NCBI GenBank assembly: GCA_044359815.1
Contig: JBIKLL010000014.1
Location: 1-49,060, forward strand
Origin: Pseudobdellovibrionaceae bacterium
GTDB lineage: Bacteria > Bdellovibrionota > Bdellovibrionia > Bdellovibrionales > Bdellovibrionaceae
Direction of reading: 5' to 3'
Length of the DNA stretch: 49,060 bases
Within the stretch, counting starts at the first letter, position 1; each line of letters opens with the position of its first letter. This document shows, one piece after another, positions 27,001 to 33,000 of the stretch. Made by a program: the position numbers.

Positions 27001-30000
27001 CACGAGGGTTTGCACTGGAGGTTTCCGGATAAAATTCCAGACAGTGTTTTAAAAATGGCTCAGCATGAGCTTACGCTGATCGCAGATCTGAAATACGATG
27101 ATTATTTTTTAACTCTTTATGAAATTTGTCAGTTTGCACGGGAAAAACAAATCCTTTACCAGGGACGAGGCTCGGCTGCAAATTCGGTGGTTTGTTTTGC
27201 CCTGGGACTGACAGCGGTTGATCCGACCAAGGTGGATTTGCTGTTTGAAAGATTTATTTCAAAAGAACGCGACGAACCCCCTGACATAGATATTGATTTT
27301 GAACACCAACGCCGCGAAGAAGTGATTCAGCATATTTATCAAAAATACGACGAAAACCACGCGGCCATGGTGTGTACCATCATCAGATATAAATCGCGCA
27401 TGGCTTTGCGTGAAACGGCCAAGGTTTTTGGGATTCCGCTGGGAACCATTGATCGCATAATCAAGTTTATGGGTCGCGATGGAATGCGCAGGCTCAAGGA
27501 AACCGAAACTATTTTTGCAGAATTTGGAATCGATTCTGAAAAATGGATGATGATGATGGCCATTGCCCAGGGGATTTACGGATTCCCACGTCACGTGGGG
27601 ATTCACACCGGAGGATTTTTGATCACTCAGGATTTTATTTGCCAGATGGTTCCCGTTGAAAAAGCCACGATGCAGGGCCGTTACGTTATACAGTGGAACA
27701 AAGACGATGTGAATTTTATGGGATTAATGAAAATCGATTTGCTGTCGCTGGGAATGCTGACTGCGATAAAAAAATCTCTTGAATCACTGAGCAAACATAA
27801 GAACCTGCATTACAATCTGGCCACCCTGCCCGCCGAGGACAAAACCACTTACGATATGATCAGTCGGGCTGATACTGTTGGGGTTTTTCAGATCGAATCA
27901 CGGGCACAGATGCAAACACTGCCCAGGATGAGGCCACGAAATTTTTATGATCTGGTGGTTGAAGTGGCGTTGATCCGTCCAGGCCCATTGCAAGGGGGCA
28001 TGGTGCATCCCTATCTGCGCAGACGCCAGGGGCTTGAAAAAGTCCAATATGGTCATCCAAAACTGGAAAGCGTGTTGAAAAAAACTTTGGGTGTTCCGAT
28101 TTTTCAAGAGCAAGTTATGAAAATCGTGATGGAAGCTGCAAGCTTTAGTGCCGGAGAAGCCGACGAACTGAGACGATTGATGTCTGCAGCTTGGCGGGGC
28201 AAGGGCACCATGGATGGAGTCCGCCATCGCATCATGAGGGGATTTAAAGAAAACGGGATTCCTGATGATTACGCAGAAAAAATTTATAAAACCATAGAGG
28301 GCTTTGCGAACTATGGCTTTCCTGAAAGCCATGCGGCCAGTTTTGCCCTGCTGACCTATGCAAGTTGTTATTTAAAATGCCATCACCCCGAGGTTTTTAC
28401 CTGCAGTTTGTTAAACAGCCAACCCATGGGATTTTATGCGCCCCGAACGTTGATCGCCGATGCTCAGAGACACGGCGTCCGTGTGCGGCCCTTGTGCGTG
28501 CAAAAATCTGATGTGGAATACACTCTGGTTAAATCAGACACTGCCGTTCAACACAATCCCGATGCCGCTTTTAAAAAAGACCTTGATCCGAAATGTGCTG
28601 CTGAGTCTGCAAATCGTTTCTTGGATCTGCAGATTGGGCTTTGTTCTGTGTATGGGGTTGCACAACATTTTTTAAATATTTTGGTCCAAGAGCGCACAAA
28701 AAATGGCAGCTTTAAAAATCTGTCTGATCTGATTATGCGAACCTGTTTGCCAAAATCAGTTTTGCTCAGACTGGCTGCCAGTGGTGCCATGTCCAGTTTT
28801 AAAATCCCGGCCCGCGAATTGATTTGGCAAATCGAAGCCACAGAATTAAGTGATCAAAGTTTTCTGTGGACTCTGCCGCGCGAAAGCTTTCAGTCACTCA
28901 CAGCCAATCAAACAAAACCCGAATCCGAATGGCAGTCATTGCACCGCGAGTACACGACAAAGGGATTTTCGATCGACAATCATCCGATCAAATTGCTGCG
29001 GCAAAAATCTTGTTTGAGCTCAAAAGATTTATCCAAATTACCTAATAAAAAACGTTTGCAGATTATGGGTCTGTTGGCCTTTACCCAAAGACCGCCGACG
29101 GCCAAGGGTATGTGTTTTATGACTCTTGAGGATGAGTTTGGATTTATTAATGTTGTGGTGCCGCCATTGGTTTACGAAAAGTGCAGATTAGTGATTTATA
29201 ACCAGTGTTTGTTGCAGATTTCGGGTGTGCTCGAAAAAAAATCAGGGGTTTTAAACGTTCGTGCAGATCATATTAGTGGTCTATATCGCTAACTTCTTTT
29301 TGGATTTATTTTTTTCGGCGTAGGCCTGCAGAACTTCTCGTATTAAAACTTGATATCGACCTTCGTAATCTTCGTTAAGTGACAATTTCTTCAAGTCCTT
29401 CACCAGATTAAGAGGCAACCTAATTGAAATATGAGCAGTGATATTTTCATCCACGAAATCTTCAATCGGTATGTTGACGTTACCAGTTTTTAATTTTTTA
29501 GCCATGCAACTCCTCCCATCTTTCTAACAACAATAATCTGTTTTCCTTAACGACTCGTAAAATTCTGTTCAAAGTTGATGTCGTAAATTCAGTTTCTGAA
29601 TCCATGACTTCAAGATTCAACAAATTTATCCGAACAGAAGCCCCCATACCCTCAACATGCACATGAGGCGGACTATGGTCGTTCTCATTGATTTTATAAA
29701 TCAAATGTTTAGAAGAAAGGGCTTTAACCCTAGTCATGCTTAAAAAGAATACAATATATACTGTATATACGCAACATCTTTTTAACAAACAAAAATTTAA
29801 GATACGAGCTGCATTTTAAACAATCTGAACCTAAAAAACTAGGGTTACAGGGGCTTTAGCGACTACAGCGCCAGCGTTATAACTGCTTGAAAAACGCAGA
29901 AATTCCTGTCAAAAGGATTACATCAAAAAATACGGAGAGGTGGCCGAGTGGCTGAAGGCGCTCGCTTGGAAAGCGAGTTTACCCGTTAAAAGGTAACGCG

Positions 30001-33000
30001 AGTTCGAATCTCGCCCTCTCCGCCAAATAAAAAAGCACCCAAAGCGGTGCTTTTTTATTTGCTGAAAGATGTGAATTTCGAATCTCTCACAGTTTGCGAG
30101 TTCGACAAAAATCGCAGGAAGCCATCGAGGCGTTAGCCGAAGAAGCGACGAAGTCGCGCTGGCGAAGCGATTTTTGAGTGAAAGCCCCTTGTGGGTGAGG
30201 GTCATTGATGGCCCGAACAATCTCGCCCTCTCCGCCAAAAACACACACATCAAAAAACTTCGAACATGCGGTGCTCGCCTTTTCAAGGCTGCGCTCGCTA
30301 TTTTAAAAAAGACGGAATTGGAATATCAACATCACCAATCCGATAGCTATAAAAAACCTGAGTGCTAAAAGTTGCCTGACTGACCTGTCCATCTTCTACT
30401 GTGGTGGAGTTTTGATCCACAATAATCTGAATACCAACGGCATGACTATTATAGTTATAACCGGTGCCCAGCCGCAAACCTACGCGATGAAGAGACGAAT
30501 TTGACCACTTCCCAGATTTGTCGATGACTTCTGCTTTTTGATAACCAATACCGGCACCCAAATACGCGCTACCTACAAAATAATAATGAGTCCAAATAGG
30601 TAAAGTATAGCCATAGCCAGCACCACCCATTAAATAGTGAGTCTGCAATGAAATCAGATCATGAATACGACTTCGACCAGAAGTGATATAGGAAGGTAAC
30701 ATTGGCGAGTCACTTTTGATATTTGTACGGCCGGCGCTGGCCCACAATAGAAAACTCCCTCCGCCCTCTTTTTGAATTCCACTTTGAGCAAAAGCCACAG
30801 CATTTGAAAAGTACGCAGGAGATAGAACTGTGATGTAGTTATATCCCACAGTTTGTACCTGCATGTCGGGACGCAATTGAGGTTGACCTGTCAATGCATC
30901 CTTCCAATCTTGGATCGAATATCCCTTGAAGTCTTGATAAATTAACTCGTGGGTATCGCGATGACCAAAAAATCGAAGCTGATAATCTTGAATTGCCGAT
31001 GTGCCCTTTTCTTCGATAGAAGCCGCATCTGGCGATGATGGCAATTGAAAGCTAAAACCGACATTTTGATATCCAACCCCAAATGAAAGAAGAGTGGGAC
31101 TGTTTGGAATATAAACGACATCAGCTCCGGGACCTGAGACTGTAAAATCCAAACCCGGTCCTATCAATGCAGCTCGCAGACTCAAAGTTTTGTCGTGCTC
31201 TGGGGTCCACCGAGGTTCTGAAGCTAAGCATGCTAAAGCAGAAAATAATAAAAAGTTTACGATTGAGAGCAAGAATATCAGCATAAATTTTAGCTTGCAA
31301 ATAGCCTCTAAACGCAAAATTGATTGGTAGGCTTAATAACATAAAACGAAAAAACAGTTGAGATCAAAGACATTGAATTACTCAGCCCACTCCAAACAAA
31401 AAGTTCGAAAGCTATCTACTTCTGCTAGCCAAAAGTCCGTTACTAAAAGCTTTAGAATCACAAGTGACACCATTGATTTTGATAGTATCATTTGATACTA
31501 TCAAAAAATGAATCTACCACCATTTCAATTGACCCCAAAGATAGTCAATCTCTTAAGTGAAATTCAATTTATGCTGGGTTCCCTGCAACCGCAGGCCTTA
31601 ACCAGGGCACCAGTTAAGCTCAGAAAAGAAAATAAAATCAAAACCATTCAACACAGTCTGGCCATCGAGGGTAACAGCCTTAACCTGACTCAAGTCACCG
31701 ATCTGGTTGATGGAAAAAGAGTGTTGGGACCAAAACGCCAAATCCTAGAGGTCCAAAATGCGATCAAAGTCTACGAAACGCTTGCTAGCTTTAAGTGGAA
31801 CTCTGAGAAAGATCTTCTTAGAGCCCATAAATTGCTGATGCAAGACCTGGTAAAGAATCCCGGCAAATACAGAAGTGAGAGTGTTGGCATCTTCAAAAGC
31901 GGAGTCGTGAAACACATGGCCCCTTCAGCCAAACAGGTTCCGAGCCTAATGGGTAAGCTATTTAATTTCTTGAAACAGGATTTAGACACTCACCCTATAG
32001 TCAAAGCCTGTGTTTTTCACTACGAGCTTGAGTTTATTCACCCGTTCATGGACGGAAATGGCCGCATGGGCAGACTGTGGCAACAGGTCATTTTAATGAA
32101 CTTTTCTGAAGTTTTTGAATTTCTATCTATTGAAACTTTAATTCATCAAAGGCAACGCAACTATTATTTGGCACTTGAGAAAAGTGACAAGGCTGGTGAA
32201 TCAACAACCTTTGTTGAGTTTAGCCTTGAAGTCATTCGAGACACACTCACCGAATTTTCAAATGATTTCAGGCCAAAGAAAGCTAGTGCCAGCGATCGCA
32301 TTGAATCTGCTCTCGAAAAATTTGGACCCAGGCCCTTTAGTCGAAAAGATTACTTGAGATTTCATAAAACTCTATCAACGGCCCAAGCAAGCCGGGATCT
32401 TAAGCATGCAGTCGATCAGGGGTTAATCAACGCCAAAGGAAGCAAAGCTCTAACCACTTATAAAAAGGTATCGACGTGAGCACTAACAAATGACTGCAAT
32501 TTTATTATTTTTTGTCACACCGATATTAGCATCCCAAAGTTTTTCAGTCGAAAGCAAATTCAGTCGACTGTCCATTGAATCAATCCTGCAATACCAATAT
32601 TTTCAATCAGCTGATAATGAAAAATGGAAACATTGGATGCTGGAGGTTTTTAAATACCAGGACAAAATCAACACAAACAATCATTCCCAGGGATTCAGCA
32701 CAACATACGATATGGATCTGAATCAAAACGTAAATCTGGGGTTTGGCATAGGTTATGAAAAATCTGAACCAGGCCCTATGATAATTATTGATCCAAAAGT
32801 TTTTTTGACTTTGGATTTTCCGGTTCAACCAGATAAATCCCTGTTACCTAAACTGAAATTTTCGCAAATCCGAATCAGGGACAACGGGGCAGCAAACACA
32901 ACCTCGGATTCAGACAGGGTTTTGATATTGAATTCCATCGAAGCTGGTTTGGGTTATCAGAAACTTAAAAGTTTTTATTTTGAAATCGGAGTTTCGAAAA

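Follow-up and report, generated by a model that had tools for sequence, protein, structure and literature searches.

Gene-free units with a clade-specific hairpin module at the 3' ends of tRNA genes in a Pseudobdellovibrionaceae genome: candidate integration-type cassettes or relics

The stretch of Pseudobdellovibrionaceae DNA analysed here (the window: 49,060 nucleotides, positions 1 to 49,060 of contig JBIKLL010000014.1) contains a single tRNA gene, tRNA-Ser(gga), and the end of this gene is found again a short distance downstream on the same strand. Is this the scar of an integration event and, if so, of what kind of element? According to passages of PMC4383910 and PMC9897764, a tRNA gene (tDNA) accompanied by a displaced, same-orientation fragment of its 3' end is a signature of integration, tmRNA genes are also targeted and tandem arrays occur. 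The anticodon loop, the T loop and the T/acceptor junction are known crossover subsites; PMC4383910 names the latter two, and it states that Islander rejects candidates shorter than 2 kb or without an integrase.

The tRNA-Ser(gga) gene (29934..30025, + strand) was identified with ARAGORN (Rfam tRNA score 60.7 bits) and is complete, with an encoded CCA; all the features that follow lie on the + strand. The first repeat copy (A1, 30007..30027) contains the 3' part of the T loop, the 3' strands of the T stem and acceptor stem, and the CCA + 2 nt. It is identical at 21/21 positions to the second copy (A2, 30219..30239; AATCTCGCCCTCTCCGCCAAA), a displaced or pseudo tRNA 3' end. Directly 3' of the tRNA gene lies a terminator-like hairpin (30024..30061; inverted repeat CAAATAAAAAAGCACC / GGTGCTTTTTTATTTG), composed of an A tract, a GC stem and a T tract, with 16-nt arms that overlap the CCA by 2 nt. 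This is followed by a spacer with a degenerate T-arm-like stretch (30062..30095; direct 10-mer TTCGAATCTC) and by the left half of a pseudo T arm (30096..30105: T-stem 5' strand GCGAG + TTCGA), which is identical to the equivalent part of tRNA-Ser(gga) itself (direct repeat from -28 to +70, 10 nt). Between this half and A2 lies a module, M, here of type Mc (30106..30218; CM R1 match 30092-30237, E 3e-12; nhmmer Mc family), that carries three hairpins: H1 in its long variant (30106-30176, CAAAAATCGC...GCGATTTTTG), H2 (30184-30196) and H3 (30199-30214), with the linker GAAC. As single-stranded DNA, the window M is predicted to fold into a three-hairpin junction closed by the T stem (z -1.97). 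The initial annotation had described the insert as non-coding, and indeed it contains no ORF with a Pfam match; a 122-aa ORF antisense to the window tRNA matched 0 families.

Judged by alignment, the window spacer shares its descent with that of the unit at tRNA-Ser(gct) on contig C84 (score 49; aligned to either tRNA in reverse complement, it scores 21-25). An origin of this spacer as an inverted copy of a tRNA end was considered and is unsupported (cognate score 6, best non-cognate 7). That modules are common to several tRNAs, as initially proposed, is borne out by the same pair of units (C55, the window contig, versus C84: 78% over 183 nt): spacer and M are common by descent, yet the repeat matches the local tRNA in each case.

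For the genome-wide survey, the gene set consisted of the 33 tRNAs and one tmRNA found by ARAGORN in the 125 contigs of this metagenome-assembled genome (MAG; G000, 91% complete). The last 17 nt of each tRNA were searched for within 600 nt, allowing up to 2 mismatches. A same-strand downstream copy was found at 10/33 tRNAs, and this independent scan returned exactly the ten loci reported before, together with the same control counts: 0/33 for the 3' end upstream, the 5' end downstream and the 5' end upstream, and 2/33 for the inverted 3' end downstream (0/33 for the remaining inverted controls). The exact repeat was 16-27 nt long, except at tRNA-Ala of C76 (63 nt) and at tRNA-Val of C59 (a 17-mer with 2 mismatches). 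Copy 2 began 149-318 nt after the end of the tRNA in the ten loci; its start lay in or at the T arm and its end 0-4 nt past the CCA, with the exceptions of C76 and the G058 locus (L022), at which the repeat continues further. The exact repeat started in the T loop at 8/10 loci, the crossover point itself not being observable from sequence; in repeats of the Met C30 type the anticodon arm was retained too. Overall, copy 2 was identical to the tRNA at 243/285 positions, whereas no inverted copy exceeded 192/285.

The ten loci were an undercount. Decayed units were also found behind tRNA-Glu, tRNA-Cys, tRNA-Leu(gag) and tRNA-Asp, and the tmRNA gene is trailed by a unit with a copy 2 of 18/19 identity. 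The copies that had been located at the ends of other contigs were confirmed for all three tRNAs concerned: tRNA-Arg(acg) (C69:15338 and 15121), tRNA-Leu(tag) (C75:376) and the tRNA-Met of C81 (C29:199, inverted relative to the adjoining module). At least 17 different tDNAs are occupied by related modules. Units stand behind about half of the tRNA genes of the genome and behind its tmRNA gene. Arrays were present: two identical units in tandem at tRNA-Arg(acg), and unlike units (Mb, then Ma) at tRNA-Leu(tag). The distal copies were the more decayed ones at tRNA-Leu(tag), at tRNA-Val and at tRNA-Arg(tcg) of the relative G019.

The units are built in a constant order: a terminator or a "D" foldback, a spacer, the three-hairpin module M and copy 2. 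In the larger M types (Ma and Mc), M is preceded by the T-stem 5' strand + TTCRA and followed by AATC, the T-stem 3' strand, the acceptor strand and CCA; there, copy 2 forms a complete pseudo T arm whose T loop holds M. In the Mb and Met types the junction between module and tRNA fragment lies elsewhere. In 7/10 units of this genome that were checked by eye, the T-stem 5' strand on the left of M agreed with the local tRNA at 4-5/5 positions, and a sharp left junction after GTTCGA/GTTCRA was seen in most Ma/Mc units of this genome and in 11/28 loci with an exact H1 25-mer. M has hairpins near both ends, a fixed orientation and neither terminal inverted repeats (TIRs) nor a target duplication. 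The flanks of M and D are locus-specific, and D cores are flanked by A-tract and T-tract stems that resemble split terminators. H1 is a terminator-like hairpin with a T tract, and conserved motifs (ANGA) occupy loops of M. H1 and H3 covaried strongly: paired cells made up 98%, and double-change cells numbered 66 against 11.5 after shuffling (0/500 shuffles as high), in an alignment that was fitted to the model. In Rfam 15 only the tRNA attained its gathering score, and with E limits of 10 and of 1 no family covered M.

Both modules follow tRNA genes closely: apart from 3, the 36 D and M matches of the genome lay near a contig end or in the 450 nt that follow a tRNA, and matches with a tRNA on their contig were on its strand (M 14/14, D1 6/6), except for one D2 copy. 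The M/D units do not show the conserved TIRs and target-site duplication of MITEs; by contrast, G019 has a MITE, bounded by TIRs of 25-27 nt and flanked by TA, in which an M core is embedded.

M was detected in 24/100 relatives (9/13 families, 1-7 copies each), and its exact 25-mer matched only Bdellovibrionales records; the M sequences clustered neither by genome nor by tRNA type. Among the 29 M matches in relatives, 13 had a same-strand tRNA within 200 nt upstream, and at 11 of these 13 copy 2 corresponded to that tRNA (0-3 mismatches in 16); the other 16 had no tRNA within 1.5 kb upstream, though most of these orphans still end in a tRNA-like ...CCA. The tmRNA gene of a relative also carries a unit, and tRNA-Glu units from two genera were 87% alike over 269 nt, the likeness ending 3 nt past copy 2. 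A copy 2 without M was seen at 0/10 units of G000 and at none of 29 tRNA-Ser(gga) loci. The window unit was reproduced with 0 differences in contigs of four other lake metagenome runs; these contigs contained no empty site, joint or excision product, and JGI metagenome contigs gave no match.

The initial annotation took the repeats for the footprint of site-specific integration into tRNA genes, an interpretation that is partly supported. Its geometry stands: as in the Islander definition, a complete tDNA is followed downstream by a cognate 3' fragment in the same orientation (10/33 tRNAs; controls 0/33), at tRNAs and at the tmRNA, and in tandem arrays. What the claim lacks is a recombinase, an excision product or an empty site: no integrase lies in or overlaps the intervals of 149-318 nt, which fall below the 2-kb minimum, and the units are 10-100 times smaller than islands. 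The genome encodes two tyrosine recombinases (PF00589), both Xer-sized, on C96 and C26; the nearest tRNA is 24 kb away in the first case and 5 kb in the second, and bears no unit in either. Serine recombinases, reverse transcriptases and the TnpB TNB domain each gave 0 matches in this 91% complete MAG, no recombinase gene was found in or adjoining any unit of the genome, and in three complete relatives 0/15 M matches lay within 40 kb of a tyrosine recombinase gene. A simple attL/attR scar fits poorly because of the pseudo T arm with its M, the inverted copies and the overrun of the repeat into the terminator. With at least 17 different tDNAs bearing related modules, many re-targetings of the att core would be needed, and a local T-stem 5' strand left of M is not predicted by a plain attR unless M came later.

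The reading that we favour, with a probability of about 0.4, is that the units are non-autonomous, attP-sized integration-type cassettes, or relics of such cassettes, that lie at tDNA 3' ends and contain a hairpin module specific to the clade. In its favour are the position and orientation of the copies, their left edge and the sharp right edge, the tmRNA units, the arrays, the restriction to tDNAs, the matching copies in relatives, the common descent of two units with local ends, the patchy spread of M and the good preservation of copy 2; the inverted copies and the lack of any empty site or M-less copy 2 at the loci and in the contigs surveyed speak against it, as do the points just listed. 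Recombination of the integration type, in the stretch from the T arm to the CCA, would lodge a small, gene-free cassette at the 3' end of a tRNA or tmRNA gene. That gene would keep a complete 3' end, followed by the terminator or D foldback of the cassette, and a second copy of the gene end would be left at the far side. The cassette, similar in size to an attP region, would bring the Bdellovibrionales-specific M; in the Ma/Mc types, the displaced pseudo T arm would hold M in its T loop. Cassettes would accumulate in tandem and then decay, the present ones being presumably old and fixed. The repeat would have arisen by recombination rather than by local copying, and the enzyme would act in trans or be a host function (an integrase, or homologous recombination with the tRNA and copy 2 as arms). 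M, which splits the repeat, may shield the units from excision or deletion; such protection would account for the presence of M at each copy 2 seen. A more speculative extension, which we regard as improbable, is that M folds out of the DNA and joins the split T-arm halves, rebuilding a mimic of the tRNA-gene 3' end: with such a structure-defined and easily re-targeted attachment site, a single recombination function, acting in trans or supplied by the host, could place cassettes after any tRNA or tmRNA gene.

A local origin is also conceivable, if rather doubtful: at the two hairpins with which every tDNA ends, the palindromic T arm and the terminator, replication slippage or a switch of template would give partial duplications of the tRNA 3' end, direct and inverted, M and D would lodge in the T loop or terminator loop and stabilise the duplication, and gene conversion would spread it between similar tRNAs. 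No recombinase is needed for this, and most Ma/Mc units have local T-arm sequence on either side of M. The D cores between split-terminator-like stems and the M cores outside tDNAs, which are closed by locus-specific inverted repeats, point the same way, as does the inclusion of the terminator in the repeat at C76 (repeat length 63 nt) and at the G058 locus (47 nt, judged by eye). Inverted copies lie exactly across the terminator or D foldback at tRNA-Arg(tct) (16-18 nt), tRNA-Asn, tRNA-Asp, tRNA-Ala and C29 (23 nt) and, with arms of ~80 nt, at locus L015 of a relative; those at tRNA-Asn of C4, L015 and L024 have no M. However, by a strict test inverted copies were real at 4/33 loci, plus C29, and statistically unsupported at the other 29, including the window locus. 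The far better conservation of copy 2 argues that the direct and inverted copies are not the product of one event unless conversion acts. Nor would insertion into a symmetric hairpin yield the observed orientation bias of M and D1. The descent of spacer and M common to two loci, the lack of any M-less direct duplicate at the loci surveyed, and the confinement of the modules to tDNAs in a genome with abundant hairpins also count against local copying.

PATEs and REP/BIME mosaics are short, GC-rich hairpin clusters that occur after genes in a specific orientation and have no TIRs. M resembles them in all these respects, and HUH genes are present in the genome. M could accordingly be a miniature IS200/IS605-type, PATE-like element with subterminal hairpins, inserted 3' of TTCRA by single-strand transposition, moved by the HUH Y1 transposase homologues of the genome and surviving only in non-essential pseudo T arms. 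The left junction, the absence of TIRs and target duplication, the fixed orientation and the nine Y1_Tnp matches (eight of them near-identical paralogues of ~206 aa) agree with this reading, which nonetheless seems unlikely by a wide measure. The 206-aa family is not associated with M, because it occurs in 62/100 relatives overall and in 13/24 M-positive ones (11/24 lack it by this query). The HUH genes have no M or D flanks, the single RAYT-like gene is flanked by different repeats of its own, and no TnpB TNB domain is present. Any genome contains TTCGA many times, yet M is confined to tDNA tails in this one; the Mb and Met-type modules join the tRNA fragment elsewhere, and the source of the pseudo T arm is left unexplained.

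Slightly less credible again is that M and copy 2 form a functional RNA, a scaffold with a tRNA-3'-end-like tail made by read-through from the tRNA promoter, which could serve as a decoy or sponge for tRNA-end-binding factors or as a guide-like RNA aimed at the tRNA gene. The H1/H3 covariation, the conserved ANGA loops, the tRNA-following orientation, the well-kept copy 2 and the layout of a scaffold followed by a ~19-nt tail are in keeping with such a role. Against it, the terminator-like H1 with its T tract should stop read-through before H2, H3 and copy 2, M is patchy among relatives and variable in copy number, many units are decayed, no Rfam family matched, no RNA-guided nuclease domain was found, and an M core also rides in the TA-flanked MITE of G019. 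Finally, the 16 orphan M matches and an 8.6-kb island between tRNA-Ser(gga) and an M unit in the relative G052 might suggest that the repeats are attR, the distal ends of large, ordinary islands with an integrase, or that they arose by chance or in assembly, but this is very improbable given the contiguity of ten units with their own tRNA, the scan controls and the G052 island, which has its own 7-nt repeat and entered between the tRNA and a pre-existing complete unit, and for the window locus it is contradicted by contiguity and by the four-run reproduction.

How do these units compare with known systems? They are like tRNA/tmRNA islands and prophages, as described in the sources cited above, in the complete gene with a downstream fragment reaching from the T-arm region to the gene end, in the use of tmRNA genes and in tandem arrays; they differ in having no integrase or any other gene and in length (0.15-0.33 kb versus at least 2 kb). 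They also differ in the occupancy of about half of the tDNAs, in the module that splits the displaced T arm and in some inverted copies. Cis-mobilisable elements (CIMEs) are att-flanked, devoid of recombination genes of their own and regarded either as mobilised in trans or as products of decay; the units share their attL/attR-like flanks and lack of an own recombinase. CIMEs are, however, kilobases long, derive from known ICEs and lie beside a helper, whereas no helper or parent element was found for the units here. Integron attC, which goes with an IntI integrase and R''/R' core sites, and CTX phage attP(+) are folded single-strand sites in which structure is conserved over sequence and arrays form at one fixed site. 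The units are similar in their compensatory hairpin changes, in structure over sequence and in arrays at a fixed site, and the folded-M reading would make them the tDNA counterpart of attC or of the folded CTX attP; in contrast to those sites, most loci here have a decayed version of the paired inverted copy, and only two Xer-sized tyrosine recombinases are present and no IntI was seen, though no search aimed at it was made. Compared with PATEs and REP/BIME, M does not co-occur with the HUH family and is restricted to tDNA tails in this genome.

Fragments of tRNA genes are a standard marker of mobile-DNA integration, and finders discard candidates that are short or without an integrase, which creates a blind spot (PMC4383910 for the discarding). 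In this relative of predatory bacteria, signatures of the discarded type, a miniature form of the mobile-DNA scar in tRNA genes, are found at about half of the tDNAs and are built from a conserved, clade-specific structured module. Whatever their origin, MAG assemblies break at these tRNAs (three loci end contigs here), and both island finders and the annotation of tRNAs can be misled by the units. Should these be integrating cassettes, they would be the smallest tDNA-integrating elements described and would imply a trans-acting or structure-guided route of recombination; if they are made locally, the T arm and the terminator hairpins would drive a recurrent duplication of tRNA ends.

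The 2.95 Mb assembly (125 contigs, of which the window is C55) was searched with ARAGORN, and 33 tRNAs and one tmRNA were found in the whole genome, the window having a single tRNA gene, that of tRNA-Ser(gga) (29934-30025). For the repeat scan, the last 17 nt of each tRNA were used as query within 600 nt, with up to 2 mismatches. A direct downstream copy of the 3' end was obtained at 10 of the 33 tRNAs, and the controls run with the same scan (3' end upstream, 5' end downstream, 5' end upstream) gave 0/33 each; the inverted 3' end was present downstream of 2/33. The initial annotation had reported the same 10 of 33 with the same controls and loci, and all of these were reproduced under these settings (17-mer, up to 2 mismatches, 600 nt). 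The exact repeat was 16-27 nt long, except at tRNA-Ala, where it reached 63 nt, and at tRNA-Val, where a 17-mer matched with 2 mismatches; the second copy (copy 2; copy 1 being the tRNA's own 3' end) lay 149-318 nt from the tRNA end. In the window, 30007-30027 recurs exactly at 30219-30239.

The neighbouring window genes encode a 1054-aa Pol III alpha-like protein that has an OB fold and is of DnaE2-like size (26128-29292), a DUF4160 protein (29498-29788), a DUF4421 protein (30298-31317) and a Fic-domain protein (31508-32479). The window unit was recovered with 0 differences in contigs of four other lake-water DNA runs (2020, 2024), and one contig record from those runs covers 29536-30502; none of the sequencing runs listed is recorded as RNA. 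No excision joint or empty site was seen in the contigs of the four runs, which lose rare variants and are silent on rare excision. A search of JGI metagenome contigs with copy 2 and its flank gave 0 matches.

The copies that had been listed at contig ends were also present, and three of those loci extend onto further contigs: behind tRNA-Arg(acg) stand two or more identical units in tandem (C84 end and C69), behind tRNA-Leu(tag) two dissimilar ones (C106 and C75), and the tRNA-Met locus of C81 runs on into C29. Decayed units lie behind tRNA-Glu, tRNA-Cys, tRNA-Leu(gag) and tRNA-Asp, the foldback part alone behind tRNA-Asn, and a full unit, with a copy 2 matching 18/19, behind the tmRNA gene (C59). 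Approximately 17 of the 34 tDNAs are therefore affected. An ISL3-family insertion sequence (398-aa transposase; NF033550, 242 bits) has inserted into the units of tRNA-Met(C81) and tRNA-Leu(tag) and terminates three contigs (C81:14077-14197, C106:1-121 and C79:13233-14456).

Every unit has the same order: copy 1, a terminator-like hairpin or a D foldback (families D1 and D2), a spacer, the three-hairpin module M (types Ma, Mb, Mc and Met) and copy 2. The stems of the D foldback are locus-specific, resemble a split terminator and extend 2-7 nt (maximum 23 nt) into the tRNA end. Within M, H1 has the form A5-stem-T5, H2 is GC-rich and the loop of H3 is CAGGAG-like. Upstream of M, the Ma and Mc types have the T-stem 5' strand of the tRNA itself plus TTCRA; downstream of it come (A)ATC, the T-stem 3' strand, the acceptor strand and CCA. 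Copy 2 of these types is therefore a pseudo T arm and acceptor whose T loop holds M; in the window, this pseudo T arm and acceptor (30096-30105 and 30219-30237) are split by M at 30106-30218. Mb-type units have an inverted copy of the tRNA end as left flank, and in Met-type units the anticodon arm is retained and M is placed before the T arm. By eye, every unit had been read as containing the whole tRNA end in inverted form; when the cognate end was tested against 33 non-cognate ends, four of the 33 loci (Asn, Asp, Ala and Arg-tct) gave statistical support for this and the other 29, including the window locus, did not. The reading was retained solely for these four and for the Met locus on C29, where the inverted copy is exact over 23 nt. 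Right behind copy 2 in the window, 30251-30310 (CTTCGAACATGCGGTGCTCGCC...GCGCTCGC) looks by eye like the D2 foldback core at tRNA-Leu(taa); no match to the D2 nhmmer profile was obtained there.

The spacer and M of the window unit and of the tRNA-Ser(gct) unit (C84) are common by descent: the alignment between the two scores 49, against 21-25 to the reverse complement of either tRNA. Despite this common spacer and M, the T-stem 5' strand, the loop and copy 2 match the local tRNA at both. Among relatives, a tRNA-Ser(gga) unit is present in four genomes (G024, G058, G052 and G050, the last with a 2-nt deletion in the copy), and none was detected at the other fetched tRNA-Ser(gga) loci. The units behind tRNA-Glu in G018 and in G062 are 87% alike across 269 nt, the likeness stopping 3 nt past copy 2. 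A candidate same-genus empty site at tRNA-Arg(tcg) (G019 against G073) was discarded, the boundaries being unreadable because the downstream flank is not syntenic.

The initial annotation had taken the units for footprints of integration into tRNA genes. The geometry of tDNA integration, as described in PMC4383910 and PMC9897764, stood, and two defining properties of tDNA genomic islands did not: unlike islands, which they resemble in geometry, the units have no integrase and are shorter than 2 kb. An integration-type origin, in which the units are non-autonomous, attP-sized cassettes or their relics, is tentatively considered the likeliest (probability of roughly 0.4). The main rival, local hairpin-driven duplication followed by insertion of the module, is a possible but rather doubtful explanation; it accounts better for T-arm halves of local sequence, for terminators that are repeated and for inverted copies, and more poorly for the fixed orientation, the lack of intermediates without M, the fact that copy 2 is better preserved and the spacer common to units. 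At the level of titles and listings, no paper was found on miniature integrase-less tDNA cassettes or on tRNA-linked repeats in Bdellovibrio.

Genome-wide, nhmmer gave 9 D1, 3 D2, 9 Ma, 11 Mb and 4 Mc matches; wherever the contig also has a tRNA, the match is on its strand, one D2 copy excepted. All but three are close to a contig end or no more than 450 nt downstream of a tRNA. One exception (C58:8332) adjoins a remnant tRNA-Met end; the other two are tandem Ma cores behind a terminator (C99:71513-71646), with no tRNA within 17 kb, and form the sole clear M site in this genome distant from a tDNA or contig end. On C58, two Met-type M units (520-677 and 8290-8629, also 9890-9955), the first of which closes with 25 nt identical to the tRNA-Met(C30) end, bracket 7.6 kb with L-PSP ribonuclease, CobW, ZnuA/ABC transporter and Fur-family regulator genes and no integrase. 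This stretch may be a version of the cassettes that carries cargo, or else a second tRNA-Met locus missed by the assembly. M as an arm of a larger integrase island was rejected, the C58 and C30 flanks holding housekeeping and zinc-uptake genes and no integrase.

The genome encodes two tyrosine recombinases, both of Xer size, and no serine recombinase, RT or TnpB TNB domain; in three complete relatives, no tyrosine recombinase gene lay within 40 kb of any of 15 M matches. The 20-kb stretches upstream of five orphan M loci contained one tRNA (G052) and one tmRNA (G022). Behind the former, a tRNA-Ser(gga), lies an 8.6-kb island that encodes a large serine recombinase and a resolvase along with restriction and modification enzymes. 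It was dismissed as parent of the M unit, being a distinct insertion that has a 7-nt repeat of its own and separates the tRNA from an older, complete unit. The 553-aa recombinase ORF (locus L088, contig C7 of G052, 11204-12865) adjoins the tRNA, its 3' end running antisense across it. A serine-recombinase island at a tRNA end is perhaps notable, because tDNA targeting is known for tyrosine integrases only, according to PMC4383910.

In relatives, M was found with a covariance model in 24 of 100 genomes and 9 of the 13 families of the order, at 1-7 copies per carrier (15 in this genome). Among 29 M matches in fetched loci, 13 lie 59-199 nt downstream of a tRNA on the same strand, and copy 2 differs from that tRNA by 0-3 of 16 positions in 11 of these; most of the others still terminate in a tRNA-like ...CCA. 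In contigs of 185,579 species, with one genome for each, 28 occurrences of the exact 25-nt H1 were found, always under titles naming Bdellovibrio, Pseudobdellovibrio, Bdellovibrionaceae, Pseudobdellovibrionaceae, Bdellovibrionales or one "Bacteriovoracaceae" MAG. GTTCGA...AATC and a tRNA-like end surround H1 at 11 loci. The remaining 17 have no such context, and in those inspected the M core lies within other repeats, closed by locus-specific inverted repeats; in G019 the core (H1-H2-H3) is carried inside a MITE of about 170 bp with TA flanks and conserved 25-27-nt terminal inverted repeats (L109 365-532; L110 316-483). A tree of 32 M cores lacked resolution (one starred branch of 29), and the cores grouped neither by tRNA type (18 changes against 19.1 shuffled) nor by genome.

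That M is a PATE-like element is improbable. Nine HUH (Y1 transposase) homologues were found: one is RAYT-like with its own repeats, and eight are paralogues (86-92% identical, about 206 aa, HUH (HLH) motif, weak Y1_Tnp match), each at a different locus (C48:48177-48794, C49:93331, C23:201, C47:11964, C100:636, C56:2996, C8:23385 and C125:2390), with a common upstream stretch of about 60 nt and often with adjoining short tandem repeats. This family, with up to 22 matches per genome, is multi-copy in 62 of 100 relatives and occurs in just 13 of the 24 M carriers, and neither M nor D lies beside the eight genes, so it was rejected as mobiliser of M.

A functional RNA is likewise improbable. In an alignment of 40 matches fitted to the covariance model itself, 98% of H1 and H3 cells are paired (slid controls 39-54%) and both-side changes number 66 cells against 11.5 shuffled (0/500 shuffles as high). 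The window unit and seven other unit loci gave no Rfam match for M, and CsrA binding by GGA loops was rejected because GGA varies in the H1 and H3 loops. Under the preferred integration-type origin, M would be a hairpin module in its own right, specific to the clade, that fixes the displaced T arm by splitting it.
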